DNA of 64,000 nucleotides, from the IMG/VR virus record IMGVR_UViG_3300019487_000003, positions 1-64,000 of that record; one strand, given 5' to 3'. Below the pieces are notes generated by a model that saw nothing but the letters and a program-made list of their open reading frames with translations, searched no databases and had not been told where the DNA came from. This DNA is from a virus. The translations under genes and the position numbers were made by a program. Below, piece by piece: positions 1 through 22,981 of this stretch (within the stretch, counting starts at the first letter, position 1; each line of letters opens with the position of its first letter).

Positions 1-236
1 ACGCGGCGGTCACTATGAGAAACCCCAACAATTTTCGAGGGCCCTGGACAATCGTAACACCAGATGCCGGAGGATTAACATATAAAGCCGTTATTCCATC
101 TGTTGCATCATTCTTTGGTGGGGTATTACCAAAGAAGTGGGGTTTTGTTGTCGAAAATAGAACAGGACTTGCCTTTAACGCAACTGAAGGAAACCACACT
201 AAACAGTATACCGGCATATATCTAACTTCATCATAA
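1..236 (+). CDS. C-terminal fragment of an ORF open to the window edge (function unknown, probably virion-associated)
   Basis: Frame 3 is open from nt 3 to the stop at 234-236. The true start lies upstream of the window. Confidence 0.35.
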   Translation, partial: AAVTMRNPNNFRGPWTIVTPDAGGLTYKAVIPSVASFFGGVLPKKWGFVVENRTGLAFNATEGNHTKQYTGIYLTSS

Positions 237-255: not shown

Positions 256-3200
256 GTGAGTGCCAAGTACCCTTTTCGTAGATCATATCTAACACAACCA
301 CCTCCAGGGGTAGAAATAAACCCTGGCCACCCTCTCTCAAAGGGTCTTGTGTCCTATTGGACATTTGCTACTACTGGAAAAAGAGTATATGATCTTGGTC
401 CTGCTCAGAAACATGGCCCATTTTCTGGTGTTATATCAATAAATCGAACAAATAATCATAGAATTTCCGGAAATTGTGTTGAAACAACTAACAGTAACGG
501 AGAATTCATCAATTTTGGAACAAGCACACTTTATCCTATTGGTGCCGCAGCAAGAACCATTACTTTTTGGGTGCAACCAGATACAGATACAGCAAGAAAC
601 TGGGTAGATTATTCATCTAATACTTCAAATATCCTTAATATTGGACAAAGATTTAGAATTTATACCCAAAATGGTGCTATCAGAATGGATTTTGGTCTAC
701 ATTCTGTAAGAACACCAAACAACGTAATTCTACCTAACGAAACTTGGGCTTTCGTGGCAGTTGTTGTTCCTGTTGGTGCCACAACAACAGGACAAGTCCA
801 AATATATTTACAAGGAGTTTTACAAACTCTTACAGCTACTAGTGGAACAAGTCAAACACTCAATACCACAAATATTAACGTTCAAGTTGGAGAAGGATTT
901 GATGGGACAAATTCTGAAGGAAAACTTACAGAATTAAGAATTTATAATAGAGCATTATCAAATTCAGAAATCATTCAATTGAAGAATATGCCTTGGGCGA
1001 ACTTCACTGAACCAACTTATTTAACTGATCTTCAACCGGCACCAGCTACACAAATTATTTCTCCAACTAGTATTGCAAGTGCAGAAGCATTTGGTTCTCA
1101 TCTTGTAAATCAAAATATTTTACCAAATGCTATTCCTTCAGCAGAAGCAATAGGCCTTGCACAATTAAATCAATTTATTATTGCACCAAGTTCTATTCCT
1201 TCAGCAGAAGCGTTTGGGACAGATATAATTGTGCATGAAATTGAACCATCTTCTATTCCAAGTGGTGAAAATTTTGGGTTGCCACTTGTTATGACAAATG
1301 TTATAACAATTTTTCCTACCGGGCCGCCTTCTGAAGAAGCGTTTGGTACTCCCCTTCTTATACAACATATAAACCCTTCAAGCATCAACTCAGATGAGGC
1401 TTTAGGTACTCCAACTTTAGCATTTGGAGTGATAACACTTCTACCAGTCGGTATTACCTCACAAGAGGCGATTGGAAATCATCAAATAAATTTAGAAACA
1501 GAAGAAATTGGTATTGCCTCTGGAGAAGCCTTTGGTATACCATTAATTATTCAAACAATTATCGCTCCAACTTCTATCTCAAGTGGCGAAGCCTTCGGCA
1601 CACCCCTAATAGTTCAACACATTCATGCTATTTCAATAAATTCTCAAGAGGCTTTTGGTACTCCAACAGTTTCTACAGGATTTGTAACTATACTTCCAGA
1701 TGATATGGGTTCCGAAGAAGATTTTGGAATTCCTTTTGTAAGTTCACCATCTACTATAATTGTTCTAGGAATTCCTTCCGAAGAAGATGTAAATGAACCT
1801 ATAATTGTTCACAAAATTTTCAACTTCACACTAAACTCTGAAGAAGATTTCGGCCTTGCAAAATTTAATTCAAAAATACATAATCCGACAAGTATACCAA
1901 CAGAAGAAGTATTTGGCACACCTGAATTACTTGTAGGAAATACAAATGTTCTTCCTAGTTCTATTGCTCCTTCAGAAGCATTTGGTAATACAACATTAGT
2001 ATTGTATTTACAACCAAGTTCTATAGCTTCCGAAGAATCTGTAGGTACACCAGAACTAGATGTGATACTAGATAACTTTACTATACCATCACTCGAAAAT
2101 GTTCCACCACCAACTATAGTTACATCTGGTATTAGTGTTAGTGTTACTTCAATTGCTTCAGAGGAAGCATTTGGTACACCTCAATTAATGGTTCATATAC
2201 ACCCTATTGGGATCACTTCTCAATCAGATTTTGGTGTAATTTATATTTTATCAAAGATAGTTCCATTTTCTATTCCTTCTGAAGAAATTTTTGGTGCCAC
2301 AAAAATAAATAGCCACATTCAACCATCTGGTATAGTTTCTGGTGAGACAATTGGTTCTCATACACTTAGTTATGTTATTAAACCAAGTTCTATAGGATCT
2401 AATGAATTTTTTGGTTCTCCAACAATTGTAACTCCAATTGCACCATTGCTTCCTACAAGTATTGGTTCTCAAGAAACTTTTGGTAATACGCAAGTTAATT
2501 TAAAACTATTCACAACAGGAATACCATCCGAAGAAGCATTTGGTTCTGATAGTTTAAATGAAAATATTAAACCATCTAGCATACCTTCTACTGAAGCATT
2601 TGGAACATTAAAAATAAATCAAAATGTCTATCCTGTTTCTATATCTTCAAATGAAGTCTTTGGGACTCCTAGTGTTATTCCTGAAATAGATGAAACATCT
2701 ATACCTTCTGCTGAAGCATTTGGTTTAGCGCAACTAAACCTCAAACTGTATCAATCATCTATACCTTCTGCTGAAGCATTTGGTTTAGCAAAATTGAAAT
2801 TATATGTTGCTCCATCAAGTATAGGTTCTTCTGAAGCCTTTGGCTCACACTCTGTTGGATATAAAATAAAACCAACTGCAATACCATCTGGACAAATATT
2901 CGGTGCACCAACTATTATTCCTGGTGCAGTTAGTATAATTGTTCCTTCTATAGGTTCATCTGAAGCCTTTGGTTCACATAAGATTAATCACAAAATTAAT
3001 CCAAGTAGTATTGCCTCGGCTCAGATGTTTGGTTCATCGAATGTTACACAAGAAGTTGATAGATTTTCTATCCCTTCCGCAGAAGCATTTGGTATACCTA
3101 AAGTCAAAAAGTTTGTTCATCAAATATCTATACCTTCGGCAGAAGTTGTTCCTGCTCCTAAAGTTAACCTTAAGATTAAACCTACAGGAATTCCAAGTGA

Positions 3201-4131
3201 AGAAAGTGTTCCTAATGTTAATATAGAGGTTGGTCCTGTTTTTGTTGTTCCTCCTTCTATTCCTTCTGCGGAAGATGTTTCGACCAGTGATAGAATTAGA
3301 ATTAGAATACACTTAAATCCTGGACTTGGTATACCAACACAACAAGCATTTGGTATACCTCAATTAAACTTTATTTTGCATCCACAAGGATTCAATCAAA
3401 CAATTGTTCCTAGTCCTATTATTGTTACAGGTAACACAAATATATCTGTATTTGGATTAATTACAAGAGAACATTTTGGTACACCTAAACTTGTATTTGA
3501 AATTGATACAACTGGCATACCTTCTGCTGAAATTTTTGGATCACACTCAATTCTGAAAAAGATAAAAGTTACATCTATTTTATCGAACGAAAGTTTTGGA
3601 TCTCATAAGGTTGTAAAGATATTGGGTGTAACTGGAATTGCAACTGGGGAATCTTTTGGTTCTGTAAATGTTGTTCCTGAAATTGATCCTATAGGTATTC
3701 CTTCTGAAGAAAATGTTCCTACCATCAATCTTATTCAATCTGCCGCCCCTCTTGGGACAGTTTCTATCGGAAGCGGAGAAACATTTGGAAGTTTGAAAGT
3801 CAATCTTTCTATTATTGATGCGGGCAATATAGAATCCGGGGAAGATTTCTTAAATGCAGAAATTTTTGAAATGGGAATTGAGTCAGAAGAAGAATTTGGG
3901 CTTCCACTTCTATTAAAACAATCAGTCATATTGCCATTAGGAATTCCTTCTCAAGAACAATTCGGTGGAAACACAAGGGTATTCCAACAACTAATTACGC
4001 TTGAAGATAATCACGACGGAATCCCAACAAATGAAGGATTAGGTATTCCATGGTTAGTCAACCACAGAGACAGAGCTTTTGTAACATTGTCTGCAAGTAA
4101 AAGAAATTATAAATATCTCGTGAGAAAATAA
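256..4131 (+). CDS. Giant fibre/adhesin-like protein: N-terminal LamG/concanavalin-like domain followed by about 48 tandem ~20-aa repeats (consensus I-x-P-S-S-I-P-S-A-E-A-F-G-x-P-x-L)
   Basis: Uninterrupted 1291-aa ORF with a GTG start 8 nt after GAGG. 'GKLTELRIYNRALSNSEI' is typical of the end of LamG_3-type domains. Repeats were parsed by eye from the translation. Confidence 0.8.
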   Translation: MSAKYPFRRSYLTQPPPGVEINPGHPLSKGLVSYWTFATTGKRVYDLGPAQKHGPFSGVISINRTNNHRISGNCVETTNSNGEFINFGTSTLYPIGAAARTITFWVQPDTDTARNWVDYSSNTSNILNIGQRFRIYTQNGAIRMDFGLHSVRTPNNVILPNETWAFVAVVVPVGATTTGQVQIYLQGVLQTLTATSGTSQTLNTTNINVQVGEGFDGTNSEGKLTELRIYNRALSNSEIIQLKNMPWANFTEPTYLTDLQPAPATQIISPTSIASAEAFGSHLVNQNILPNAIPSAEAIGLAQLNQFIIAPSSIPSAEAFGTDIIVHEIEPSSIPSGENFGLPLVMTNVITIFPTGPPSEEAFGTPLLIQHINPSSINSDEALGTPTLAFGVITLLPVGITSQEAIGNHQINLETEEIGIASGEAFGIPLIIQTIIAPTSISSGEAFGTPLIVQHIHAISINSQEAFGTPTVSTGFVTILPDDMGSEEDFGIPFVSSPSTIIVLGIPSEEDVNEPIIVHKIFNFTLNSEEDFGLAKFNSKIHNPTSIPTEEVFGTPELLVGNTNVLPSSIAPSEAFGNTTLVLYLQPSSIASEESVGTPELDVILDNFTIPSLENVPPPTIVTSGISVSVTSIASEEAFGTPQLMVHIHPIGITSQSDFGVIYILSKIVPFSIPSEEIFGATKINSHIQPSGIVSGETIGSHTLSYVIKPSSIGSNEFFGSPTIVTPIAPLLPTSIGSQETFGNTQVNLKLFTTGIPSEEAFGSDSLNENIKPSSIPSTEAFGTLKINQNVYPVSISSNEVFGTPSVIPEIDETSIPSAEAFGLAQLNLKLYQSSIPSAEAFGLAKLKLYVAPSSIGSSEAFGSHSVGYKIKPTAIPSGQIFGAPTIIPGAVSIIVPSIGSSEAFGSHKINHKINPSSIASAQMFGSSNVTQEVDRFSIPSAEAFGIPKVKKFVHQISIPSAEVVPAPKVNLKIKPTGIPSEESVPNVNIEVGPVFVVPPSIPSAEDVSTSDRIRIRIHLNPGLGIPTQQAFGIPQLNFILHPQGFNQTIVPSPIIVTGNTNISVFGLITREHFGTPKLVFEIDTTGIPSAEIFGSHSILKKIKVTSILSNESFGSHKVVKILGVTGIATGESFGSVNVVPEIDPIGIPSEENVPTINLIQSAAPLGTVSIGSGETFGSLKVNLSIIDAGNIESGEDFLNAEIFEMGIESEEEFGLPLLLKQSVILPLGIPSQEQFGGNTRVFQQLITLEDNHDGIPTNEGLGIPWLVNHRDRAFVTLSASKRNYKYLVRK
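1054..4060 (+). repeat. In-frame degenerate tandem array with ~60-nt period (about 48 units)
   Basis: Recurrent 'ccttc(t/a)gc(t/a)gaagcatttgg' cores. Units starting at 2701 and 2761 share their first 29 nt exactly. Confidence 0.85.
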
Positions 4132-4592: not shown

Positions 4593-4934
4593 ATGGCCAT
4601 AGATCGCCGTCAACAGTTTACCAAACAGCCCTCCGAAAAACTACCAGTAGACCTGGATTTTGGAAGGGCTATCCCTGTCGGCTCAGACCACATTGTAGAT
4701 GCTTCCGCAACGGCTGTAAAATGGCCGCGGAAGCAGCCTACTGTTAAAACAGATGCTACCTCTGAAATACTTTTAAGCGATGTTCCAGTGATTGTTGGTG
4801 TCAGTCAAACAAAACTTAGATTGATGGTAATTGATGGATTGGATGAATTTGAGTATCAAATCAGCGTCATTTCCATATGGGATAATGGTGCGGAATTGGA
4901 AGATGAAATATATGTTAGAGTTAGGGAAGAATAA
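4593..4934 (+). CDS. Small phage protein, probably structural (function unknown)
   Basis: 113-aa ORF packed between neighbours, all-beta-looking sequence, no motif recognised. Confidence 0.5.
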   Translation: MAIDRRQQFTKQPSEKLPVDLDFGRAIPVGSDHIVDASATAVKWPRKQPTVKTDATSEILLSDVPVIVGVSQTKLRLMVIDGLDEFEYQISVISIWDNGAELEDEIYVRVREE

Positions 4935-4936
4935 TT

Positions 4937-4944
4937 TATAAATA
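4937..4944 (+). promoter_or_regulatory. T4-type late promoter TATAAATA upstream of the scaffold gene
   Basis: Perfect TATAAATA in an intergenic spacer. A gp55 late sigma is encoded in this window. The 17-nt block 4935-4951 is identical to 48272-48288. Confidence 0.6.
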
Positions 4945-4997: not shown

Positions 4998-6314
4998 ATG
5001 GCAGCAAAGAAGTCTTTCAAGGCACTTCGAGAAGATCAAAACAAATTGCTCCCTACACATCCTTCCGATGCTGGGAAACAAGTTCCAGATAAGTGGGCAG
5101 ATCGTAAAGCAACTTCCGAACAAGATAAGAGCAAGTCTTTGCTCCCTACACATTCATCTGACGCAAGCGCAGAAGTTCCAGATTCACTAGAAGGAAAAGT
5201 TGGTAAAAGAGCAGTAAAGCCATCTCAAGATGGTCAAGCTATTGCTTGGGCCGCTGGTAAGCACGGAAATGCAGAAGCAGCACAACTTCCTGAATCTGAA
5301 GATAAAGAAGATTGGGATAAGGAAGAAGTCAAGGAAGAGGAAGAAAAGGACGAGGACAAGGAAGTAAAAGAACATGATGAAAAGGGTGAAGAGGAAGAAG
5401 AACTGAAGGAAGGGGATGACTGGGAAGAAGACCTTGACAAGATGGACGAAGAAGTTGAAGACGAGTTGAAGAAGGATGAAGTGAAGGAAGAAGATGAGAA
5501 GGATGAAGACAAGGAAGAAGTGAAGGAAGACGAAGATAAAGACGCTGATAAGTCTGAGGACGATGAAGACGAAGAACTTAAGGAACATCTTGCCGCTCTT
5601 ACTGCTGGTGATTTCCTTTCTGAAGATACAAAGGGTCGCGTAAAGACTATTTTTGAAACTGCTGTTCGTTCGTCTGTTCAAAAGAAACTTTCTGGAGAAA
5701 GAAAGAAGCTCCAAGAAGCGTTTTCTAAAGTGTCAAAGCGAAAGATTCGCAAGATGCACGAAAATATGGCAGAACGTATTAATTCCTACCTCGACTACAT
5801 TGTAGAAGAATGGTTGAAGGAAAACTCTGTAGCTGTAGAAGCTGGTCTTCGCACAGAACTTGCAGAAGAATTCATGTCAAAGTTGAAGAATCTTTTGGAA
5901 GATCATTTCGTTGAAGTTCCTGAAAGCAAGAAAGATTTGCTCGGAGAACAAGCAGAAAAAATCGAAGCACTTGAAAAAGAATTGAATGATGAAATCAACA
6001 AGAATGTTGATTTGTCAAAGAAGATCAATGAGGGTGAAAAAGAAGCATTAGTCACCTCTCTTTGTGAAGGGCTTACCGCACTTGAAGCAGAAAAATTCAA
6101 AAAGCTCATTGTAGCTGTAGATTTTTCTTCAAAAGAACAGTATGGTAAGAAACTTCAAATCATCAAAGAAAGCTATTTTGGAATCAAATCCAAGGCTGGT
6201 GATGTAGCTGGAGCCCTTGTTGAGGAAGGTGGAATCGAAGCTCAAAAGAGTGGACAAATTAATGATGAGATGGATCATTATGCTGTTGCGATTTCACAAA
6301 GTTTGAAAAAGTAA
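4998..6314 (+). CDS. gp22: Prohead core scaffold protein (T4 gp22-like) with a hyper-acidic central tract
   Basis: AGGAG SD; sits directly upstream of the gp23 homologue. The C-terminal half has the gp22-like 'NSYLDYIVEEWLKEN' region and coiled coil. About 110 aa of D/E/K-rich tract. Confidence 0.7.
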   Translation: MAAKKSFKALREDQNKLLPTHPSDAGKQVPDKWADRKATSEQDKSKSLLPTHSSDASAEVPDSLEGKVGKRAVKPSQDGQAIAWAAGKHGNAEAAQLPESEDKEDWDKEEVKEEEEKDEDKEVKEHDEKGEEEEELKEGDDWEEDLDKMDEEVEDELKKDEVKEEDEKDEDKEEVKEDEDKDADKSEDDEDEELKEHLAALTAGDFLSEDTKGRVKTIFETAVRSSVQKKLSGERKKLQEAFSKVSKRKIRKMHENMAERINSYLDYIVEEWLKENSVAVEAGLRTELAEEFMSKLKNLLEDHFVEVPESKKDLLGEQAEKIEALEKELNDEINKNVDLSKKINEGEKEALVTSLCEGLTALEAEKFKKLIVAVDFSSKEQYGKKLQIIKESYFGIKSKAGDVAGALVEEGGIEAQKSGQINDEMDHYAVAISQSLKK

Positions 6315-6319
6315 TGTTT

Positions 6320-6327
6320 TATAAATA
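6320..6327 (+). promoter_or_regulatory. T4-type late promoter TATAAATA upstream of the major capsid gene
   Basis: Perfect TATAAATA in the 54-nt spacer. AAGGAG SD follows before the ATG at 6369. Confidence 0.65.
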
Positions 6328-6368: not shown

Positions 6369-7658
6369 ATGTTCAAGACTGAAGACTTACAAAAGAAATG
6401 GGAGAAGGTCCTAAATCATCCTGAACTTTCTCCTATCAGAGACGCCTATCGTAAGGCTGTCGTAACTATCCTTCTCGAAAATCAAAAGAAGGAAAACGAC
6501 AATTCTGGCACAGGCGGATACGCAACTTTGAACGAAGCTGTTCCAGCTAACGTTGCAAACGGATTCCCAAATAACGCAAACTTGAAAGGATACGATCCAG
6601 TTTTGATCGCTCTCGTTCGTAGAGCGATGCCACAATTGATCGCTTTCGATGTTTGTGGTGTTCAACCAATGGACGGTCCTACTGGATTAATCTTCGCTCT
6701 TAAGAGCCGTTACACTTCACAAAGCGGTGCAGAAGCACTTCATTTTGAAGCAGATACAGCTTTCAGCGGAACAGGAACCCATACAGATCCTCTCGATCCA
6801 ACTGGCGCTCTTACTTCTGGTTCTGGTCTTGCTACATTCGACGGCGAAAAACTCGGCACTGGCGCTCCTGAGCCTGAGTTTCCTGAAATGGCACTTAGCA
6901 TCGACAAAGTAACTGTTGAAGCTAAGACTCGTGCGTTGAAAGCAGAATACACAATGGAAATTGCACAAGACCTTAAAGCAATTCACGGTCTTGATGCTGA
7001 AAGCGAACTTGCTAACATCCTTTCTGCTGAAATTCTTGCAGAAATCAACCGTGAAGTTATCCGTGAAATCTACCGTATCGCTGAAGTCGGTGCTCAACAC
7101 GATGTTGCGACTGCGGGAACTTTCGATCTCGATGTTGATAGCAATGGTCGTTGGCTCGTTGAAAAGTTCAAGGGTCTTATGTACCAACTTGAACGTGATG
7201 CTAACCAAATCGCAAAGAGAAGCCGTCGTGGACGTGCTAACTTCTTGCTTTGTTCTTCTGACGTTGCTTCTGCTTTTGCAGTAGCAGGGTTGCTCGACAA
7301 TGCAACTTCTCTTTCAAATAGCTTGAATGTTGATGAAACAGGAAATACTTTTGCTGGTGTTCTTAACGGACGCTATAAAGTATACATCGATCCTTATGCG
7401 TTGAACAACGTAAACTTCGCAGTTCTTGGATATAAGGGTTCAAATGCTTATGATGCTGGTCTTTTCTACTGCCCATACGTTCCTCTCCAAATGGTACGTG
7501 CGGTTGGTGAAAACAGTTTCCAACCAAAAATTGGATTCAAGACACGTTACGGACTCCGTTGCAACCCATTCAGCAACCTTGCTGGTAACTCAGACGGATC
7601 GCTTGTTTCAAACACAAACGTATACTACCGTAAGATTAAGATTACAAATCTTCTCTAA
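6369..7658 (+). CDS. gp23: Major capsid protein (T4 gp23 family)
   Basis: 'LVRRAMPQLIAFDVCGVQPMDGPTGLIFALKSRY' matches the T4 gp23 segment 'MVRRAIPNLIAFDICGVQPMNSPTGQVFALRAVY'. Strong SD and a terminator downstream. Confidence 0.93.
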   Translation: MFKTEDLQKKWEKVLNHPELSPIRDAYRKAVVTILLENQKKENDNSGTGGYATLNEAVPANVANGFPNNANLKGYDPVLIALVRRAMPQLIAFDVCGVQPMDGPTGLIFALKSRYTSQSGAEALHFEADTAFSGTGTHTDPLDPTGALTSGSGLATFDGEKLGTGAPEPEFPEMALSIDKVTVEAKTRALKAEYTMEIAQDLKAIHGLDAESELANILSAEILAEINREVIREIYRIAEVGAQHDVATAGTFDLDVDSNGRWLVEKFKGLMYQLERDANQIAKRSRRGRANFLLCSSDVASAFAVAGLLDNATSLSNSLNVDETGNTFAGVLNGRYKVYIDPYALNNVNFAVLGYKGSNAYDAGLFYCPYVPLQMVRAVGENSFQPKIGFKTRYGLRCNPFSNLAGNSDGSLVSNTNVYYRKIKITNLL

Positions 7659-7864: not shown

Positions 7865-8431
7865 ATGCCATTTCAGACAGAAAATAAGAATTTTCAGTCT
7901 CAATTAAACTTTGAGTTTACCATTCATCGTATCCCAGATGTTGCCTTTAACTTGCAAAGAATTGTTTTGCCGGGTGTTGAAATTACACCGATAAAGGTTC
8001 CATCTGTAGTAAACAAATTTCATGTCCCAGGAGATGAAGTAGTTTATGGACAACTTGAGGTTGAATTTAAGGTTCAAGAAGGTATGAGAGATTGGTACGA
8101 AATCTTTCAATGGGTCACAAGTTTAGCTTTTCCTGAAACACATGATCAATATGCTAACATTCGCCGAGGCCGTTTGAAAAATCTTGATGGGAAGAATGTT
8201 CCTCTACAAGATCCAAACCCAGATGGCGGGAGAAAATTGCAAAATCTTTTCTCAGATATTACTTTACACATTTTGACAAGCAAAGAAAACCCTTATCTTG
8301 AATTTACATTCAAAGATGCCTTTCCAGTTTCATTGGGGCCACTGACTTTTAATACTACTGACGCCGATGTTAATTATCTTAGTTCCTCGATACGATTTCA
8401 ATATGACACCTACAATGTTAGAAAACCATAG
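7865..8431 (+). CDS. Tail tube / baseplate-tube family protein (T4 gp19/gp48/gp54-like fold family)
   Basis: N-terminal pattern 'F-x-F-x-I-x-R-x-P...Q-x-V-x-LPG' and later 'W' motifs resemble the gp19 family. Assignment made from memory of the family pattern. Confidence 0.5.
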   Translation: MPFQTENKNFQSQLNFEFTIHRIPDVAFNLQRIVLPGVEITPIKVPSVVNKFHVPGDEVVYGQLEVEFKVQEGMRDWYEIFQWVTSLAFPETHDQYANIRRGRLKNLDGKNVPLQDPNPDGGRKLQNLFSDITLHILTSKENPYLEFTFKDAFPVSLGPLTFNTTDADVNYLSSSIRFQYDTYNVRKP

Positions 8432-8439
8432 AGTGCTAT

Positions 8440-8823
8440 ATGAAAAATAAAGTTACTAGACGACCACGAAAGATTAAGATTAAAGACGCCGAATACAAAG
8501 TAAAGGCGAAAAAGAATTTTTATGGCTTCAAGAAGCATAAAAAAGCTCTTAAGAAAGAAAAGTTGCATGGACGAATTGACTTCAATAAAGAATTAGTTGA
8601 AGTTGAGGAAGTTCAACCAACTGACGAGATGATCGATACTGTCATTCACGAAGTAATGCATGGCATCGTCCGAGAATGGCCTATCGAAGTAGATGGAAGA
8701 AAAGAAGAAAGATTCGTTACAGAACTTGCAAACGGACTAACTTCAGTTTTCATCGATAATCCAAAACTTGTTGGTTGGATGCACGAAAGAATCCTTGCTA
8801 TACTCGCTGCTAGAAACGTCTAA
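8440..8823 (+). CDS. Small basic protein with an HExxH zincin motif (HEVMH)
   Basis: 127 aa, Lys-rich N-terminus, 'VIHEVMHGI' at aa ~69-77. Confidence 0.5.
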   Translation: MKNKVTRRPRKIKIKDAEYKVKAKKNFYGFKKHKKALKKEKLHGRIDFNKELVEVEEVQPTDEMIDTVIHEVMHGIVREWPIEVDGRKEERFVTELANGLTSVFIDNPKLVGWMHERILAILAARNV

Positions 8824-8827
8824 GCAT

Positions 8828-9073
8828 ATGGCCAGTCCACCCTGGATCTTGCAACTCAAAAAGGGAGATGAATTGCTTTTGGAGTTTCCCTTTACAGGAA
8901 ATATGAGATATGCTATCATTGTTGAGATATTAGATTGGGGAATCGTGGTCGACTATGACGACAAAAAGCACGATTATCTTGACTTTCAGAATTATAATCT
9001 TCAAGATTCTCAATGGGAGAATTGGAAAGCATATAAAGTTGAAAAAGATGCGAGTAATAATAGCAGGGACTAG
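8828..9073 (+). CDS. Hypothetical protein
   Basis: ATG at 8828 lies 5 nt after the upstream stop. The longer track ORF (8768) would overlap the preceding gene. Confidence 0.45.
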   Translation: MASPPWILQLKKGDELLLEFPFTGNMRYAIIVEILDWGIVVDYDDKKHDYLDFQNYNLQDSQWENWKAYKVEKDASNNSRD

Positions 9074-9473
9074 AACATTTACTGATTATAAGGCTTTTCA
9101 ATCAAAGCTGTTCGATCTTTTTTGTGATTATCTTTTGAAAGAACAAGAATTAAAAATTACAGAAGTTATTTCTGGTGGTGCCAGAGGTGTTGACAAGCTA
9201 GGCATGAAATATGCCAGTTTGAATAAGATTCCCTGCACATTATTCCCTGCTGAATGGAATAAACATGGTTTAGGTGCTGGTCCTATAAGAAATAAAAGAA
9301 TGGCTGAATATGGTGATTTACTTATTGCATTTTGGGATGGTAAAAGTTCTGGAACAAAAAATATGATTGAAGAAATGCAAGCATTAAATAAACCCGTTCA
9401 TATTATAGACATTCCTGTGGCGAAACCAGTCCAAAGACCCTCGTTAGGGAAACACTTGGTTGAAAAAGAATGA
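9048..9473 (+). CDS. SLOG / DUF2493-like (DprA-Smf/LOG-related Rossmannoid) protein
   Basis: 'MRVIIAGTRTF...VISGGARGVDKLGMKYA' matches the SLOG/DUF2493 signature. The internal ATG at 9048 is preferred over 8955. Confidence 0.55.
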   Translation: MRVIIAGTRTFTDYKAFQSKLFDLFCDYLLKEQELKITEVISGGARGVDKLGMKYASLNKIPCTLFPAEWNKHGLGAGPIRNKRMAEYGDLLIAFWDGKSSGTKNMIEEMQALNKPVHIIDIPVAKPVQRPSLGKHLVEKE

Positions 9474-9691
9474 ATCCTGTTGAATATAAGATTTCTCCTC
9501 TTTGCCATCATTGCAAAAAGCATTTTGTTGTTCATTGCAGTTGTGAGTTGGGAAGATGTGCATATCCTAATTGCGGAAATGTGACTGATCTCAGATTTAG
9601 TCCTATAAATGGAAACGAACACTGCACAATTCATGCTGTTGAATTTTTAGAAGGCGATAGATCGTATCTGGTGAATCATAATGAAGATTGA
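9470..9691 (+). CDS. Small Cys/His-rich (zinc-binding-like) protein
   Basis: 73 aa with CHHC...CSC...C..C and further C/H residues. ATGA overlap with the upstream gene. Confidence 0.45.
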   Translation: MNPVEYKISPLCHHCKKHFVVHCSCELGRCAYPNCGNVTDLRFSPINGNEHCTIHAVEFLEGDRSYLVNHNED

Positions 9692-10115
9692 GGAGATAGA
9701 AGACTTCTGGTCAGAAGATTCCAAAATAGATAGAACAAATCTTGATGGTGAATCACTCAAAATCCCCGAACTACATAATAAGTATTACAAAATTTACATT
9801 AGAGAAAAGGTTTTACTTTCTAAGAAACAAACCGAATTAGATGTCTTATTAAAAGACAAATGGGAATTATATACAGGGAAATTAGATAAACAAACACTTC
9901 AAGAAAGAGGTTGGGAGCAATTTGATTACGTTGTATTGAAGGGTGATATTGAAAAATATCTTGATGCTGATTCTGAATTGATTGAAAAGAAACTTGAAGT
10001 CTCTATTAATAGGGAAAAGGTTCAATATCTCCAGGATATTATTTCTGTTATTAACAACCGTTCTTTTCACATTAAGAACGCAATTGAATATTTAAAATGG
10101 ACACAAGGCGCATAA
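9681..10115 (+). CDS. uvsY: Recombination mediator UvsY
   Basis: Size and pattern match T4 UvsY, including the C-terminal 'RSFHIKNAIEYLKW' versus T4 'RGFAIKHIQDMRAF'. Adjacent to uvsW. Confidence 0.75.
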   Translation: MKIEEIEDFWSEDSKIDRTNLDGESLKIPELHNKYYKIYIREKVLLSKKQTELDVLLKDKWELYTGKLDKQTLQERGWEQFDYVVLKGDIEKYLDADSELIEKKLEVSINREKVQYLQDIISVINNRSFHIKNAIEYLKWTQGA

Positions 10116-10321
10116 ACAAAAGAATGGCTGATAGAGTTAAATTGAATAGAAGAAATACAAATCTTTTCTTATCAATTTCCTTGGTTGTGGTATTACTATT
10201 GTTAATAGCATTGTTTAGTTTGACATACAAATTCATTTCAACGAGAAAAAATGCTGTAATAAATATCCTCAGAGATTCTTATTCTGAGGTAAGTGATGTA
10301 TCGAGAACTAATCAAAGTTAA
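10097..10321 (+). CDS. Small single-pass membrane protein (tentative)
   Basis: Basic N-terminus followed by the hydrophobic stretch 'LFLSISLVVVLLLLIALFSL'. Overlaps both neighbours slightly. Confidence 0.35.
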   Translation: MDTRRINKRMADRVKLNRRNTNLFLSISLVVVLLLLIALFSLTYKFISTRKNAVINILRDSYSEVSDVSRTNQS

Positions 10322-11765
10322 AAAGCATAACGAAGTTTATGCTGTTATTTTAGCTGATTCTGGAATTCTTAAAGAATTATCAGAATATTTCAAATTTAGA
10401 GTCCCAGGATATCAATTCATGCCTAGTTATAAGTCTAGGATGTGGGATGGTTACATTCGACTTTTCAATTCTCTGACGTGCCAATTATATCTAGGTCTTG
10501 TAAAATATCTAAAAGTTTTTGCTAAAGAAAGAGAATATGATATAGAAATAGACGATGAGATTTATGAATGTGAGCAAGAAGTAACAAAAGAAAAGATAGA
10601 TTCATTCATAGAAAATTTATCTCTCCCACATAAACTTAGAGATGCACAATATCTTGCACTTCAAGAGGCTATTACAAAGGGTCGAAATCTACTATTAAGT
10701 CCTACCGCTTCAGGAAAATCCCTAATCATTTACACTCTGATTAGATGGTTTGAAACAGAAAAAGTTTTGATAATAGTTCCAACAATTGGACTAGTAACAC
10801 AGATGATTGATGATTTTAAATCATACGGATTTAATACAAAACATTGTCATGGGATTTATGAATCTCAATCTAAAGAAACAGATAAAAGAATAGTTGTATC
10901 TACATGGCAATCAATTTACAAGCTACCCAAATCTTGGTTTAAACAATTTGGTGTTGTCATTGGTGATGAAGCACACCTTTACAAAGCTGAATCTATTAAA
11001 AAGATAATGCAAAATCTTGAAACCTGTAAATATAGATTTGGCACAACTGGAACACTTGATGGAACACAAACAAATAAACTTGTATTAGAAGGTTTATTTG
11101 GTCCTGTCTTTCAAGTTACTACAACAAAAAAATTGATGGATGAGGGTCATCTTGCAAAACTTAAAATAGATTGTTTGTTATTGAAATATGATGTTGAAGA
11201 ATGTAAGAACTTGAGAGATTCAACATACAGAGATGAAGTTAAATTTATTATAGAAAATAACAAAAGAAATTCTTTCATAACAAACTTAGCAGTTAATTTA
11301 GAGAATAACACGATGGTTCTTTTTCAGTATGTTGATAAACATGGAAAAATTCTATATGAATCTATTAAAAAGAAAGCAAAGGGAAGAAAGGTCTTCTATG
11401 TTTCTGGTGAAACAGATGCAGAATCAAGAGAACAAGTCAGAAAAATAACAGAAAAAGAAAGAGGTGTTATTATTGTTGCATCTTCTGGTGTATTCAGCAC
11501 AGGCATCAATATAAGAAACTTAGATAATATCATTTTTGTCTTCCCTAGTAAATCGAGAATCAAGACATTGCAAAGCATCGGCCGCGTTTTACGTGTAGGA
11601 GATTATTCAAATAAAGCTACATTATATGATATAGTTGATGACCTCAGTTATAAAGCATACAAGAATTTTGCACTAACACATTTTTTGGAGAGAGCTAAGA
11701 TATACAACTCCGAAAAATTCGATTACAAGATTCATAAAATCGACTTTGCTTCCAAAAAGAGCTAA
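10296..11765 (+). CDS. uvsW: UvsW-type SF2 DNA helicase
   Basis: UvsW-like N-terminal domain ('FKFRVPGYQFMPSYKSRMWDGYIRLF'), Walker A 'SPTASGKS', 'GDEAH' box, helicase C motifs. Confidence 0.88.
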   Translation: MYRELIKVKKHNEVYAVILADSGILKELSEYFKFRVPGYQFMPSYKSRMWDGYIRLFNSLTCQLYLGLVKYLKVFAKEREYDIEIDDEIYECEQEVTKEKIDSFIENLSLPHKLRDAQYLALQEAITKGRNLLLSPTASGKSLIIYTLIRWFETEKVLIIVPTIGLVTQMIDDFKSYGFNTKHCHGIYESQSKETDKRIVVSTWQSIYKLPKSWFKQFGVVIGDEAHLYKAESIKKIMQNLETCKYRFGTTGTLDGTQTNKLVLEGLFGPVFQVTTTKKLMDEGHLAKLKIDCLLLKYDVEECKNLRDSTYRDEVKFIIENNKRNSFITNLAVNLENNTMVLFQYVDKHGKILYESIKKKAKGRKVFYVSGETDAESREQVRKITEKERGVIIVASSGVFSTGINIRNLDNIIFVFPSKSRIKTLQSIGRVLRVGDYSNKATLYDIVDDLSYKAYKNFALTHFLERAKIYNSEKFDYKIHKIDFASKKS

Positions 11766-11797
11766 ATATCTTTGTAGACAAAACAAAGGATATTTGG

Positions 11798-12223
11798 ATG
11801 TCAATACTCAAATTGTTCCGATTAACGAATGGAGATGACATCATTGGATTTCTTGAAGACGTTGATAAAGAAATTGTCGCCGAATTAAATGGTGATAGTG
11901 ATAAAAATGTTAACTACGATCATATTGTTTTTGTAAGAGATCCTCTAAGACTTATATGGAGCTATGATGCTTCAACAAAAGGACATCAATTGTTCTTAAC
12001 AAGATGGATGCCCTTTAGTGACGATACATTCTTTGCAATTCCAAAAGATAAGGTTGTTACGATAGCTGATCCCATGATGGAGGTTGAAAAGCACTATTAT
12101 GAAATCAGTGACGAAACATTTCTTCCTGGCCAGATAGAAAAGGAACAAGATCCTCAAAAGAAACAGTATATGGAATTCTTGAAGGGTTGGGACATCGATC
12201 CTGATAAAGAAGAACCCCATTAA
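11798..12223 (+). CDS. Hypothetical protein, distant paralogue of 27167..27508
   Basis: Both share 'RL-x-(N/S)G(D/E)(D/E)(I/L)(I/L)' and later P/L/W and 'KxV' positions (alignment by eye). Confidence 0.5.
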   Translation: MSILKLFRLTNGDDIIGFLEDVDKEIVAELNGDSDKNVNYDHIVFVRDPLRLIWSYDASTKGHQLFLTRWMPFSDDTFFAIPKDKVVTIADPMMEVEKHYYEISDETFLPGQIEKEQDPQKKQYMEFLKGWDIDPDKEEPH

Positions 12224-12355
12224 CTTTCAATCCTAAGCTGCCGCGTTGTCATGGCTGAGGTCTTTGAGTCAATTTTATATCTGACCCTATTATTACCTTA
12301 ATATTGCAATCCAACCCACTATTTTAATTTATTTTACATGGAACAAAAATAATTG

Positions 12356-12384
12356 TTGTTTTTACTTGAAATGGGTGCTATATA
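12356..12384 (+). promoter_or_regulatory. Candidate orphan promoter TTGTTT-17-TGcTATATA inside the long non-coding region
   Basis: Extended -10 context TGn. No ORF follows for about 190 nt. Confidence 0.3.
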
Positions 12385-12455
12385 TCCGTAGTCCTTCCGG
12401 TACTGACCAGTAACTAACCAGTTCTAGTATATACCAAGTCCAAAATACCAGATAC

Positions 12456-12518
12456 CAAACACCCGAACGAAGTGAGGGTGTTTGATGCGAAGCATCCAAA
12501 ACAACTTCGTTGTTTTGG
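12456..12518 (+). other. Three abutting perfect hairpins: 9-bp stem, GATGC-GAA-GCATC containing the GCGAAGC mini-hairpin, and a 10-bp stem with TTC loop
   Basis: CAAACACCC (12456-64) pairs with GGGTGTTTG (12476-84). Second hairpin 12484-12496. CCAAAACAAC (12496-12505) pairs with GTTGTTTTGG (12509-18). Confidence 0.7.
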
Positions 12519-12542
12519 GCCTAAGTCCTTTTCATGTATAAT
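12515..12542 (+). promoter_or_regulatory. Promoter candidate TTGGGC-16-TATAAT upstream of gene 55
   Basis: Perfect TATAAT at 12537-12542, 40 nt upstream of the ATG. The -35 is weak. Confidence 0.4.
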
Positions 12543-12581
12543 ATAACTTGATCTTCCTTTAAGAAGATGTTAATGTGAAAT

Positions 12582-13145
12582 ATGGCAAAGGCAGAAAAAG
12601 ATAAAATTCACTACGTGGATAATAAGGAGTTCCTCAAAGCGATGAAGGAGCACCGTAAAGCCTTTCTAAAATCCAAAAAAGAAGGGACTCCAAAACCAAG
12701 AGTTTCAGAATACATAGGTGAATGTATTTTAAAGATAGCACAGAAACTAGCCAACAAATCAAACTTCATCAATTACACATTTAGAGAAGATATGATCAAT
12801 GATGGCATAGAAAATTGTCTCATGTATATCAATAACTTCAATCCTAACAAATCAAAACAACCATTCGCATACTTCACTCAAATAGTTTACTATGCCTTCA
12901 TTAGAAGAATTGCCCGAGAAAAGAAACATCTATACACCAAATTTAAAATGATTGAACAAGCAATGACAAATGATTTCTTTGAAACAAATGAAGATTCACC
13001 TGTCAATGCTCCAACAAAATACGGTTCAGAACATTCAAATAATTACATGCATGAATTTATGGACAATTTTGAAAAGCATAAGAACGAAAAGAAAGCAAAA
13101 ACAACTAAAAAGAAAAAGAAATCCTTAGAAAAATTTCTGGAGTAA
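12582..13145 (+). CDS. gp55: Late-transcription sigma factor gp55
   Basis: 'HYVDNKEFLKAM', 'NFINYTFREDMINDGIENCL' and 'PFAYFTQIVYYAFIRRIAREKK' align with T4 gp55 ('NYVNNKELLQAI', '[21 protein letters not shown]', '[22 protein letters not shown]'). Confidence 0.9.
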   Translation: MAKAEKDKIHYVDNKEFLKAMKEHRKAFLKSKKEGTPKPRVSEYIGECILKIAQKLANKSNFINYTFREDMINDGIENCLMYINNFNPNKSKQPFAYFTQIVYYAFIRRIAREKKHLYTKFKMIEQAMTNDFFETNEDSPVNAPTKYGSEHSNNYMHEFMDNFEKHKNEKKAKTTKKKKKSLEKFLE

Positions 13146-13147
13146 TT

Positions 13148-13939
13148 ATGTCTGCATTTTCTTATAGATGGCAATACTATGTTAAGCATCCTATCCAAGT
13201 ATTAAATGATCTTGAACGTTGGATAGCGTTTCGGACATATGATAGATATAACAGGGTTGAAATCCCTACATTAGAACCCAATTATTATGATAAAGATACA
13301 ATATTGCTACATTCATGCTTTGCACTTCTAACAGAATATGTTGAACTTGAATTAGGTGGAGAACAATATTGGGCCGATAATTTTGATCATGAAAAGTTTG
13401 ATAGAAGATATGAAAAAGAGTCAGATTTGGAACGGAAGGGTAAGAAATATCAATTAGCTCTTTATAAATTCTGGAATGAATTACATTGGCCAAAATTTAT
13501 TACACGTTTAGCCCCTTATAGGGGTTCGCGGGAATTGGGATTGAAAAATCTTGATCAAAGAATAGAAGACGCCACTGATCCTAATCTTCATGAAGATGAA
13601 AAATATTTTTATCAACATCATTCTGAAATTGCAAGAGAGATGAAGGTTTTATATCTTTGGTGGCATGACATCTTTCTCAAAAGAACAGATCCGAGTGATC
13701 GTTGCGGCCTTACAAAATATGTTGACGAACTTTATAAGAAATATGGAAGGACGCATAGATTTGTCCCTACTGGAACAAATGGTAAAGCATTTGAAAGAAT
13801 TTTTAATGGAACAAAGGAAGAGGAAGAAAAATATAGTGAACTTATCAAAGAGATGTTTGATATAGAACAGGATGATAGTTTAGAAGAAACAAACATGCTA
13901 AAAAGATTAATAGACGTTAAAGACAGACTTTGGAGTTAA
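13148..13939 (+). CDS. Hypothetical protein
   Basis: 263-aa ORF tightly packed after gene 55. No motif recognised. Confidence 0.55.
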   Translation: MSAFSYRWQYYVKHPIQVLNDLERWIAFRTYDRYNRVEIPTLEPNYYDKDTILLHSCFALLTEYVELELGGEQYWADNFDHEKFDRRYEKESDLERKGKKYQLALYKFWNELHWPKFITRLAPYRGSRELGLKNLDQRIEDATDPNLHEDEKYFYQHHSEIAREMKVLYLWWHDIFLKRTDPSDRCGLTKYVDELYKKYGRTHRFVPTGTNGKAFERIFNGTKEEEEKYSELIKEMFDIEQDDSLEETNMLKRLIDVKDRLWS

Positions 13940-13940
13940 T

Positions 13941-14330
13941 ATGGTATCGAAAGAAAAAATTTTGGACAGTCTATACAGCAATTGTCAAAATCGTTCGTTG
14001 TCAACTAAAGAAGTTACAACAAAAATGATGAAAGATTTGGGTATTGTTTTGAACGATCAACAAATCAAAGACCTTCAGGATGCAATTCGTCCATATAAGA
14101 ATAGTGGAGCTGGTTTAGAAAAAACCATTCATGTTGTTGAATGTATCATCAATTCAAATACATTTGGCCACGGAAATTATTGCTATTCTCAACCCACGAG
14201 TTTAGATGCCGCAGATTTAACTTGGAATAAAATAGAATTAAACTCTATGGATAATTCTGATCTGCAATCAATCACCGACAAAATTTTTGATAATTTCTGG
14301 AAGACTTTTTTAACTTTACCAAATAATTGA
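13941..14330 (+). CDS. Hypothetical protein
   Basis: 129-aa ORF starting 2 nt after the upstream stop. Confidence 0.5.
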   Translation: MVSKEKILDSLYSNCQNRSLSTKEVTTKMMKDLGIVLNDQQIKDLQDAIRPYKNSGAGLEKTIHVVECIINSNTFGHGNYCYSQPTSLDAADLTWNKIELNSMDNSDLQSITDKIFDNFWKTFLTLPNN

Positions 14331-14343
14331 AATATGTTATAAT
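14315..14343 (+). promoter_or_regulatory. Sigma70-type promoter TTTACC-17-TGtTATAAT, 6 nt before the ATG at 14350
   Basis: Hexamers, spacer and extended -10 read directly. No SD lies between the -10 and the ATG. Confidence 0.6.
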
Positions 14344-14349
14344 CTTCCA

Positions 14350-15456
14350 ATGAAGATTGGTATAGTTACTGACAATCATGCTGGTTGTCGAAATGACAGC
14401 CCTGTTTTTGTCGAATATTGCATTTCATTTTTTGAAAAGCAGTTCATACCCTATTTGTTAGAGAACAAAATAGATTACGTCATTCATCTAGGCGACGTTT
14501 TTGATCGTCGCAAATATGTCAATTTCAATACTCTGTTTCAATGGCGCAACAGAGTTTTTGATGTCTTACAAAAACATAATATTAAAATGGATATCCTTTT
14601 GGGTAACCATGACATCTATTATAAGAATACAAACGATATTAATAGTGTTTATGAGTTACTGAGAGGATATACTAACATAACAATATATGATAAACCTTTA
14701 ACAATCGAAGTAGATAATCTTCCAATATTCTTTTTACCGTGGACTCCACAAGGGGGAGAAGAAAATACTTTTAATGCAATAAAAGAAACTAACTCAGATG
14801 TTTGTATGGGACATCTTGAGATTAAGGGTTTTGAAATGCACGCCGGACAAGTTAATAGAGAACATGGTTTTGACCATAATCTTTTTGATAAGTTCGATAT
14901 AGTTCTTAGTGGCCACTTTCATCATAAGTCGAATAAGGGTAATATTTACTATCTAGGTGCACCATATCAAATGACTTGGAATGATTGGGGTGATATAAGA
15001 GGATTTCATACATTTGATACACAAACAAGAGAATTGATTTTTATAGAGAATAAAAGACAGATTTTCACAAAACTTTTTTACAATGACGAGAATAAAACCT
15101 TTCAGCAAGTCATGAAGGAGAAATCCGCAATCACTCGTAGGAATGGAGAGCTAATAAACAATGATGATTTTTTTGAAGGTTTAAAAGAACTATATGTAAA
15201 AATCATTGTAGAAAGAAAAGACAATCCATATTGGTATGATCAGTTCCTAGATAAAGTTTATGCTTCAAGCCCTGCTGACGTTTCTATAGTTGATCAAACT
15301 TTACAATCATATTCAGAGGAAGAAATAGATAGCGCAAAAGATACATTAACAATATTAAAAGAGCATGTATCATCCTTAGGTATACCTCAGGAAGATGATT
15401 TGAACTTGTTGTTATCGAATCTTTACAACGAGGCTTTGTCATTGGATATTGAATGA
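14350..15456 (+). CDS. gp47: Mre11/SbcD-type recombination nuclease gp47
   Basis: Calcineurin-like phosphoesterase motifs 'TDNHAG', 'LGDVFD', 'GNHD', 'GHLE', 'GHFH'. Upstream of and overlapping gp46. Confidence 0.88.
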   Translation: MKIGIVTDNHAGCRNDSPVFVEYCISFFEKQFIPYLLENKIDYVIHLGDVFDRRKYVNFNTLFQWRNRVFDVLQKHNIKMDILLGNHDIYYKNTNDINSVYELLRGYTNITIYDKPLTIEVDNLPIFFLPWTPQGGEENTFNAIKETNSDVCMGHLEIKGFEMHAGQVNREHGFDHNLFDKFDIVLSGHFHHKSNKGNIYYLGAPYQMTWNDWGDIRGFHTFDTQTRELIFIENKRQIFTKLFYNDENKTFQQVMKEKSAITRRNGELINNDDFFEGLKELYVKIIVERKDNPYWYDQFLDKVYASSPADVSIVDQTLQSYSEEEIDSAKDTLTILKEHVSSLGIPQEDDLNLLLSNLYNEALSLDIE

Positions 15457-22324: not shown

Positions 22325-22981
22325 ATGAAATTAAGTGATAATACTGTTACAATTCTCAAAAATTTTTCGACAATCAACCAATCAATTCAATTTAGAAAGG
22401 GTGATGTTTTGACAACTATTGCACCCTCTAATGCAATTCTCGGCGAAGCAAAACTTGCTGAATCACTTCCTAGGGATTTTGCAATTTATGATCTTCCTAA
22501 GTTCCTTGCAGCACACGATCTGATTGACAACCCCGATTTCACTTTCAAGGACAACCACGTTGTAATGTCTGCTGGTAAGAGACACGTTAGCGTTGTTTAT
22601 GCAGATCCTTCGGCTGTTAAATCTTTTAACAAGAAAGTTCAAATGCCTAAGGCAGAACTTGTTGTAGATTTGAATGAAAAGGATTGGTCAAGTTTGAAGA
22701 AGGCCGCAAGTGTTCTTGGTGTACCACACCTTACGATTTCTGGAAATGGAAAAAGCATTGTTTTTACTGTTCTTGATAATAAGAATACTGCTTTAGGAAA
22801 TTTCACTGTCGAATCAGAACAAGAGACAGATAAGACTTTTGAACTTGTTTTACACTTCGATAATTTGAAGATTGTTGATGGTACATACAAGATTTATATC
22901 TCAACTGAAATTGTTAATTTGAAGCATGTATCTGGGACTCTCCAATATTGGGTAGCAGCAGAAGCAAATAGCGGCATTTAA
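22325..22981 (+). CDS. gp45: Sliding clamp gp45
   Basis: 'MKLSDNTVTILKNFSTINQSI...FAIYDLPKFL' aligns with T4 gp45 'MKLSKDTTALLKNFATINSGI...VAIYDLNGFL'. Confidence 0.92.
   Translation: MKLSDNTVTILKNFSTINQSIQFRKGDVLTTIAPSNAILGEAKLAESLPRDFAIYDLPKFLAAHDLIDNPDFTFKDNHVVMSAGKRHVSVVYADPSAVKSFNKKVQMPKAELVVDLNEKDWSSLKKAASVLGVPHLTISGNGKSIVFTVLDNKNTALGNFTVESEQETDKTFELVLHFDNLKIVDGTYKIYISTEIVNLKHVSGTLQYWVAAEANSGI

Follow-up and report, generated by a model that had tools for sequence, protein, structure and literature searches.

Repeat-built, lectin-tipped phage fibres are already known as a kind, and in viral shafts such as the triple beta-spirals of adenovirus and reovirus and the repeats of T4 gp12, gp34 and gp37, the length is set by the number of units. 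In T4, the dispensable surface protein Hoc has distal N-terminal binding domains and a C-terminal domain that anchors it to the capsid, and the fibritin whiskers attach at the neck. Another kind of appendage is found in mycobacteriophage Bxb1, the tail structure of which (PDB 9D93) is reportedly that of Freeman et al. 2025. [quoted passage not shown] A member of the gp31-like family is also reported, by mass spectrometry, in virions of the cluster S mycobacteriophage Marvin (PMC3706429), and thus gp31 homologs have been located in the virions of both phages. Here we describe a gene in a 64,000-nucleotide stretch of T4-like phage DNA (positions 1 to 64,000 of the IMG/VR virus record IMGVR_UViG_3300019487_000003, referred to as the window), in which, as in Bxb1, a gp31 homolog lies just downstream of the gene for a large glycan-related protein.

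The product of this gene has an N-terminal LamG lectin domain, a very long array of 20-residue repeats and a short basic tail (table 1). We estimate a probability of about 0.6 that it forms a long, length-variable accessory adhesin fibre on the virion of a T4-like phage, and that together with the two genes downstream it makes up a mobile cassette. According to this proposal, the LamG lectin would be the distal end and would bind a surface glycan, and the roughly 45 units would form an extended all-beta stalk whose length is altered by the gain or loss of units. The C-terminal tail would be the end fixed to the particle. The fibre would assemble with the gp31-like arm protein, and probably with a Gp77-like adaptor, so that the three genes would encode one portable apparatus. 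We infer that the protein is located in the virion, binds the gp31-like protein and acts in reversible adsorption to the host; the peripheral, dispensable wing of Bxb1 is in keeping with an accessory adhesin. The two partner genes, which lie directly 3′ of the repeat gene, had been passed over in a preliminary description made from the sequence alone.

The reading frame itself (limits, strand, start codon and length) is exactly as given in that description, and the lectin-like N-terminal domain that it recognized is borne out by Laminin_G_3 (PF13385): positions 16-150 of this 151-position profile match aa 97-239 with an E value of 6.1e-13 and a score of 49.6 bits, above the Pfam cut-off of 27.6 bits. 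PHROG matches widen the globular N-terminal region to about aa 29-259; a sequence search of the PDB yielded no solved relative of the LamG domain. In the array, an HMM of the 20-position unit detects 45 units at aa 267-1237, each counted at a domain E value of 0.01 or lower, and one degenerate unit at 1255-1265. The tandem array of about 20-residue units is thereby confirmed, whereas the previous count of about 48 is lowered to 45-46. Shuffling the same 999 residues (n=50) gives a mean of 0.02 units and a maximum of 1, and an HMM built from the units of homologs alone still detects 38 units. The autocorrelation of residues reaches its maximum of 0.246 at lag 20 (the median being 0.073), and lesser peaks lie at 40, 43, 60 and 63. 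The spacing between units is mostly 20, values of 21-24 being frequent. The consensus of the window units is h-x-P-S-S-I-P-S-A-E-A-F-G-x-P-x-h. With a pI of 4.5, a net charge of about -61 and 97 Asp and Glu against 36 Lys and Arg, the array is acidic, and it contains neither Cys nor Trp. The tail that follows it carries the motifs RAFVTL...YKYLVRK.

It had also been proposed that neighbouring units are locally near-identical as a result of recent duplication. At the DNA level, the identity among units is mostly 60-75%, and Tandem Repeats Finder reports no array within the gene. The units at 2690-2749 and 2750-2809, which correspond to the pair singled out before, share 77% identity across 60 nt, of which about 33 nt form an identical core, and one further pair (2820, 2949) shares 93% over 30 nt. 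Near-identity therefore holds for short cores and not for whole units, and the case for recent unit duplication is weak. With units this diverged and Tandem Repeats Finder silent, the array is old and shows no recent expansion, the peptide motif being held by selection.

The repeat belongs to a large family. When protein databases were searched with a profile of the unit, as the preliminary description had suggested, about 2,800 clusters were found: with clustering at 50% identity, a two-unit profile matches 2832 clusters when the limit is E ≤ 1e-3, and 1855 when it is E ≤ 1e-10. At full length the protein has no close relative, the best among 5.8 billion clustered proteins being 36% identical. 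The family consensus, derived from 568 units of exactly 20 aa, is x-I-x-P-(T/S)-G-I-A-S-A-E-A-F-G-T-(P/A)-x-(L/V)-N-(L/Q), with conservation of 99% at Gly14, 95% at Glu11, 94% at Ile7 and 89% at Ser9. The earlier impression that this is not a named repeat agrees with the absence of a match in Pfam, in NCBIfam, in the PDB (sequence and profile) and in a search for the motif among the available papers, which turned up nothing but a haemoglobin review of no relevance. NCBIfam gives no match for the fibre, the gp31-like partner or the Gp77-like adaptor either, and in the PDB there is no meaningful match for the full fibre protein or the two-unit profile. In PHROG, the family already bears a label: against phrog_13352, "minor tail protein", the protein aligns in 12 stretches (E 6.5e-117), the best of them covering the repeat part of the profile (positions 17-117 of 702), and there is a weaker match to 8501. 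This label derives from mycobacteriophages such as Marvin and from Mycobacterium abscessus prophages, and the repeat matches 40 mycobacteriophage minor tail proteins. The idea of a fibre or tail protein is thus strengthened by the annotation of the family in cultured phages.

A described relative is Marvin gp88. It has the same motif (GIxSAExFG), and its gene is followed directly by a gp31-like gene (gp89). Unlike the window protein, it has only 4 units, which are N-terminal and precede about 590 aa of globular sequence, and Marvin is a siphovirus with a different host, whereas the window belongs to a T4-like myovirus. The C-terminal region of gp88 has no match anywhere in the 64-kb window. 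We assign a locus to the SAEAFG-repeat fibre family if at least three tandem units match the unit HMM and the same strand carries a gp31-like gene no farther than about 4 kb away; in the window there are 45 units, and the gp31-like gene starts 31 nt past the stop codon. What is new here is the definition of an uncharacterized repeat as a large family, with 45 units in this protein and at least 49 in relatives, together with its predominant layout (globular region N-terminal), its two classes of C-terminus and its near-obligate pairing, in phages of very different kinds, with the family of the Bxb1 wing arm.

The length of the array varies widely, with 5 to 38 units per protein (median 16) among the 120 best homologs and 3 to at least 49 in IMG/VR loci. 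Most members have an N-terminal non-repeat region of 200-700 aa, and the domains found there are LamG, DUF2341, right-handed beta-helix, TIG, He_PIG and glycosidase-like domains, that is, a varied set of glycan-related modules. Comparison within the clade of the window, which had been suggested before as a way to detect changes in copy number, reveals such variation, from 12 units in the T4-like contig L090 to at least 49 in L020, and bears out the proposal that the length is adjustable. In L090, the capsid gene of which is about 70% identical in nucleotides, the cassette is at the same place and the three genes have the same order as in the window: the stalk gene is followed by gp31-like (70% identical) and Gp77-like (48%) genes, and then by scaffold and capsid. 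The stalk protein of L090 has 330 aa, with a short N-terminal peptide, the 12 units and a tail ending in ...RNYSIFIGSK (...RNYKYLVRK in the window), and before it an 826-aa right-handed beta-helix protein (E 1.8e-7 to Pfam Beta_helix) is encoded on its own, the two reading frames (L090 2701-6152) overlapping by 16 nt. The N-terminal peptide, in which a FW(L/Q)(N/D)GLP motif is duplicated, may be a docking peptide, and the arrangement suggests a version of the fibre made of two polypeptides. In contigs L019-L022, LamG-repeat genes with 35-49 units (in L020, for example, at 8669-15115) all reach the contig end; assemblies therefore break within the arrays, and the real numbers of units probably exceed these counts. 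The LamG region of the window protein is 32-33% identical to those of L019-L022 and L029. In this clade, therefore, tail and partners are retained, and it is the head module and the length of the stalk that vary.

The family has a near-obligate neighbour, the gp31-like gene. The window gene has its own Shine-Dalgarno sequence, and its 135-aa product matches chain Ra of PDB 9D93 ("Tail wing arm, gp31") with E 2.5e-19 and phrog_644 with E 1.1e-51. Forty of the 41 IMG/VR repeat loci that are non-redundant and well flanked (at least 4 kb upstream and at least 0.5 kb downstream of the repeat gene) have a gp31-like gene no more than 4 kb away on the same strand. Counted over all non-redundant loci with such a gene, its place is upstream in 37 cases and downstream in 10. 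In GenBank, only 473 of 50,697 phage records encode a gp31-like protein. The window partner is 60-70% identical to the proteins encoded beside or near the repeat gene in all metagenomic contexts examined (including L001, L002, L004 and L090), whereas the fibre proteins in the same contexts share only about 30-36% identity. Among mycobacteriophages, Marvin gp89 is 64% identical to the window protein, and Thibault gp37, which is of the same family, is 51% identical to the window protein and 57% to Marvin gp89. In these phages the gene just upstream of gp31-like is of two kinds, coding for a carboxypeptidase wing base in the Bxb1-like NEHalo and in Thibault and for a repeat protein in Marvin, an alternation which suggests that the two hold equivalent roles. 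The window differs from the Bxb1 wing in having neither a gp30-like protein (FN3 with D-Ala-D-Ala carboxypeptidase) nor a gp33-like glycine-rich protein: a tblastn search of the window with the NEHalo homologs of gp30, gp32 and gp33 is blank at E ≤ 0.1. In NEHalo (L005 4923-5321), the tblastn alignment to the gp31 homolog begins 78 nt before the annotated start, and therefore the 106-aa version of gp31 in the annotation and in the PDB may be missing an N-terminal stretch conserved among the members of 135 aa.

Gp31-like proteins also occur where no repeat protein is detected, in Bxb1-type, Thibault-type, Pseudomonas (Hollowayvirus) and Caulobacter phiCbK-type phages. Thus the gp31-like protein is not confined to phages with the repeat, and the wing arm family has other partners. 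The Pseudomonas phage phiC725A (L010, 32873-33280) encodes a protein 58% identical to the window partner, and for the Caulobacter phiCbK-type phages the figure is about 34%; the carriers that have no repeat include podoviruses and giant siphoviruses.

How the repeat folds bears on two further readings of the array. The preliminary description had favoured a beta-solenoid or a beaded fibre. AlphaFold2 monomer models of ten units (aa 687-889, 30 aligned sequences) and of seven perfectly periodic units (aa 750-889, 58 aligned sequences) are all-beta, with pLDDT values of 57.9 and 46.8 and no residue above 90. For the first model, Foldseek returns weak local matches to left-handed beta-helices at a TM score of about 0.2, none at E ≤ 0.001, and they are not used as evidence; the solenoid idea thus gains no support from prediction. 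The alignments, which are in register, are shallow, and the failure is therefore not decisive in either direction. In the unit, hydrophobic residues are conserved at positions 2, 7, 13 and 18, and Pro or Gly at 4, 6 and 14, a pattern that would be equally compatible with a 20-residue coil of a solenoid and with a two-strand unit of an intertwined oligomer. Short periodic units, Gly/Pro turns and alternating hydrophobic residues are shared with the repeat-built shafts of adenovirus, reovirus and T4, whereas the near-invariant Ser-x-Glu sets this repeat apart from them, and there is no sequence match or reliable structural match to these shafts. The rise per unit is 4.8 Å in solenoids and 13 Å in triple beta-spirals; 45 units would accordingly span from roughly 22 nm to about 60 nm, depending on the fold.

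The lower of these values would apply if the array were a self-sufficient monomeric rod with one coil per unit. That pattern, read as Pro4, Gly6 and Gly14 together with the four hydrophobic positions, would supply about four inward-facing positions in every 20 residues, and both the all-beta prediction and the nature of the best fold matches fit such a rod, yet these are the same low-confidence models and weak matches, and the near-invariant Glu in each unit would pile up 45 charges along it. We regard the monomeric rod as rather unlikely. About the same standing, that of a tentative alternative, is given to the view that the gp31-like protein binds the repeat units themselves, so that the stalk would fold or bundle only as a hetero-complex and the array would be a scaffold for many gp31-like copies. 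The co-occurrence of 98% argues for it, as do the unusual conservation of both the motif and the gp31-like protein across phages of unrelated hosts (60-72% for the latter against about 30-36% for the rest of the fibre) and the presence of the gp31-like gene with both polarity classes described below, in which the repeat is the sole common part. The gp31-like gene has a late-promoter-like motif of its own, and the failure of the monomer predictions would be expected on this view. On the other side, Bxb1 gp31 binds gp30, which has no SAEAFG-type motif; a sequence comparison with gp30 found no shared motif that could be a common gp31-binding site, and the Pseudomonas phages mentioned above carry the partner without a detectable repeat protein.

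The orientation of the fibre is suggested by the C-termini of its relatives, which fall into two classes. In 16 of the 120 best homologs, the repeats are fused to a domain of about 115 aa that matches Phage_attach (PF05354, lambda gpFII). The second class, to which the window protein belongs, has short tails of 25-70 aa with 2-4 short motifs of alternating aromatic and hydrophobic residues. Such motifs are seen in P0071 (YSVxIV, three times), P0001 (xFSFx, four times), P0046, P0049, P0059 and the stalk protein of L090; they have the look of beta-strand docking, and their sequences vary greatly. Three independent cases of the gpFII-fused class (L002/L003, L094, L095) have the order capsid, small gene, gp31-like, small gene, fusion gene (N-terminal domain, repeats, gpFII-like domain), small genes, sheath and tube, and in L094 the first small gene after the fusion weakly matches the lambda tail terminator gpU. 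By gene order and domain identity, the fusion gene thus occupies the head-tail joining position, and in these phages the fibre would be anchored in the neck by its C-terminus with the lectin distal. This order of lectin or enzyme, repeats and gpFII-like domain, found in many family members, is the clearest cue to polarity and location, and it suggests that the C-terminus is the virion-proximal end. The preliminary description had found an N-terminal lectin unusual for a receptor-binding fibre, and this is now partly explained: most relatives share the layout and many end in gpFII-like domains, although the reverse polarity exists in a minority.

The same evidence raises the possibility that the fibre, being of the same type, is attached to the neck or head as a collar, whisker-like or capsid decoration fibre. 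We consider this somewhat unlikely. It accords with the position of the gpFII-fused homologs and with the situation of the cassette in the window, L020 and L090, within the head-gene block between prohead protease and scaffold; T4 Hoc and the fibritin whiskers offer models for both sites. Compared with Hoc, the window protein is far longer, has a different repeat and shows neither Ig-like domains nor Hoc homology in Pfam and PHROG. Against such a site, a gpFII-like domain is absent from the window protein, its partners, one a homolog of the tail wing arm of Bxb1 and the other a candidate fibre-tail adaptor, indicate the tail periphery, and the position of the genes is unreliable because the cassette moves between genomic settings. 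Genomic position was for this last reason rejected as a guide to the attachment site.

The T4-like nature of the window is seen in its scaffold (4998-6314), gp23 capsid (6369-7658), UvsY and UvsW genes. Its nearest cultured relatives are Methylophilales phage Melnitz and Pelagibacter phage HTVC008M, with about 60-62% identity in the capsid protein. Their head genes run portal, protease, scaffold, capsid, and the region examined around these genes is free of any part of the cassette. In L020 the order is terminase, sheath, tube, portal, prohead protease, two small open reading frames (ORFs) and the LamG-repeat gene, and therefore the three-gene cassette sits between the homologs of gp21 (prohead protease) and gp22 (scaffold). 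A T4-type late-promoter-like motif, TATAAATA, precedes the gp31-like gene and occurs again at 4937-4944, before the scaffold gene, and at 6320-6327, before the capsid gene, 47-60 nt upstream of the starts. The window contains 7 copies, all on the + strand, against 5.5 expected by chance, and since this count is not above chance, the placement is only suggestive.

These surroundings also bear on whether the product is part of the virion at all. A protein that is exported, or released upon lysis, and binds glycans of the host or the environment would explain why there is no proteomic support for the window protein in virions and why the cassette is able to sit among replication genes. Such a product is very unlikely, considering that homologs are annotated as minor tail proteins and that some, encoded where the head-tail joining gene is expected, carry a fused neck-protein domain, that the partner family is borne by the virion in Bxb1 and, as reported, in Marvin, and that the cassette here lies inside a block of structural genes with late-promoter-like motifs before its neighbours.

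The second partner, of 113 aa, is a candidate fibre-tail adaptor resembling gp77 of podophage GP4 (PF23148). Its match and those of its syntenic counterparts are full-length, and the counterparts score 35.7 bits in L001, 23.0 in L004 and 20.9 in L090, of which that of L001 exceeds the cut-off of 27. The L001 protein is linked to those of the window and L090 by BLAST and jackhmmer, and the latter two are 48% identical. Neither the 113-aa protein nor its profile has a match in the PDB, and a literature search for a gp77 fibre-tail adaptor found no paper. We also considered a split anchor, in which the Gp77-like protein would be a detached gpFII-like domain; this is unsupported at the sequence level, as hhalign finds no relation among the Gp77-like, gpFII-like and gp31-like profiles.

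A number of observations weigh against an accessory tail adhesin encoded by a mobile cassette. The presence in virions of the window protein, or of any member with a long array, is itself inferred, and because both AlphaFold2 models are unreliable, the stalk stands on the sequence pattern and on analogy. The window protein has no PF05354 domain in Pfam, and an HMM of 15 gpFII-like domains from homologs is blank on all window ORFs; its polarity is therefore conjectural. In a minority of relatives (Marvin gp88, Rctr197k_090, P0026, P0105, P0111), few units are N-terminal and the C-terminus is globular, and so a proximal C-terminus is no rule of the family. The Pseudomonas phages have a gp31-like protein about 58% identical and no detected repeat protein. 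The Gp77-like protein of the window scores 19.6 bits (E 1.3e-3), below the cut-off, and such a protein is detectable in about 3 of 79 IMG/VR loci. This number rules it out as a universal partner, and the Gp77-like family would be either fast-evolving or not universal. Finally, the setting of the cassette varies, with the head cluster in the window, replication genes in L091 and a place beside the terminase in L093. In L091 (9499-13924), gp31-like, a LamG-repeat protein and a 128-aa ORF lie between the genes of a family-B DNA polymerase and a ribonucleotide reductase, and amid these replication genes the cassette appears to behave as a mobile, moron-like unit. Recent acquisition of the module in the window was rejected, its GC content of 34-40% not departing from the 30-45% found locally.

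To which cells and particles a phage sticks is decided in part by accessory fibres and adhesins of the lectin type, and in environmental phages these are mostly unannotated. The combination of the repeat with a gp31-like neighbour ties hundreds of "hypothetical" metagenomic proteins to the Bxb1 structure, the single solved one that includes the partner, and to Marvin, which can be cultured. If the layout is indeed modular, with an exchangeable head, a variable stalk and an exchangeable anchor, it could be a template for engineering the host range and reach of phages, and the receptor-binding apparatus of marine T4-like phages could be better annotated. A bolder generalization, which we hold to be doubtful, is that the SAEAFG repeat and the gp31-like protein form an undescribed, portable hetero-complex fibre with a new fold, in which the gp31-like protein binds the units and which can carry almost any head that binds or degrades glycans, at the neck or tail of myo-, sipho- and podoviruses of unrelated hosts. 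Were this true, changes in unit number, from 3 to at least 49, would let the reach of the fibre vary over an order of magnitude.

Table 1. Coordinates of the repeat gene, its parts and the neighbouring features in the window.
Feature	Position	Strand	Remarks
Small ORF, 73 aa, preceding the repeat gene	15..236	+	synteny with L019-L022
LamG-repeat fibre protein gene	256..4131 (including stop codon)	+	GTG start, 1291 aa
LamG / concanavalin-A-like lectin domain, N-terminal	328..990	+	about aa 25-245; Pfam and PHROG
Repeat array	1054..4050	+	45-46 tandem units of ~20 aa each, aa 267-1265
Basic C-terminal tail, 26 aa, WLVNHRDRAFVTLSASKRNYKYLVRK	4051..4128	+	pI about 11; two short beta-strand-like motifs
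T4-type late-promoter-like motif TATAAATA	4108..4115	+	47 nt upstream of the gp31-like start codon
gp31-like partner, 135 aa	4162..4569	+	phrog_644; Bxb1 gp31 "tail wing arm" homolog
Gp77-like protein, 113 aa, candidate fibre-tail adaptor	4593..4934	+	PF23148, below cut-off

The small ORF before the repeat gene has no match in Pfam or PHROG. By synteny it corresponds to the C-terminal portion of a 160-aa ORF lying directly before the LamG-repeat gene in L019-L022, and by blastn, positions 56-193 of the window are 74% identical to 8458-8595 of L019, L020 and L022 and to 5031-5168 of L021.

Some further features were seen in the surroundings of these loci. The window scaffold gene contains, especially at 5319-5576, a long, extremely acidic low-complexity insert rich in Glu, Asp and Lys, with imperfect tandem repeats of 9-27 nt. 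Past the capsid gene, a 188-aa protein (7865-8431) in the position of T4 gp3 matches the tail-tube phrog_45 (E 7.8e-30), and between it and UvsY a 172-aa protein (8955-9473) has a GTP-binding-domain match in PHROG. In L001, the contig of the closest homolog P0001, the large terminase gene has LAGLIDADG and Hom_end matches (22445-22664 and beyond), which suggests the insertion of an intein or a homing endonuclease.

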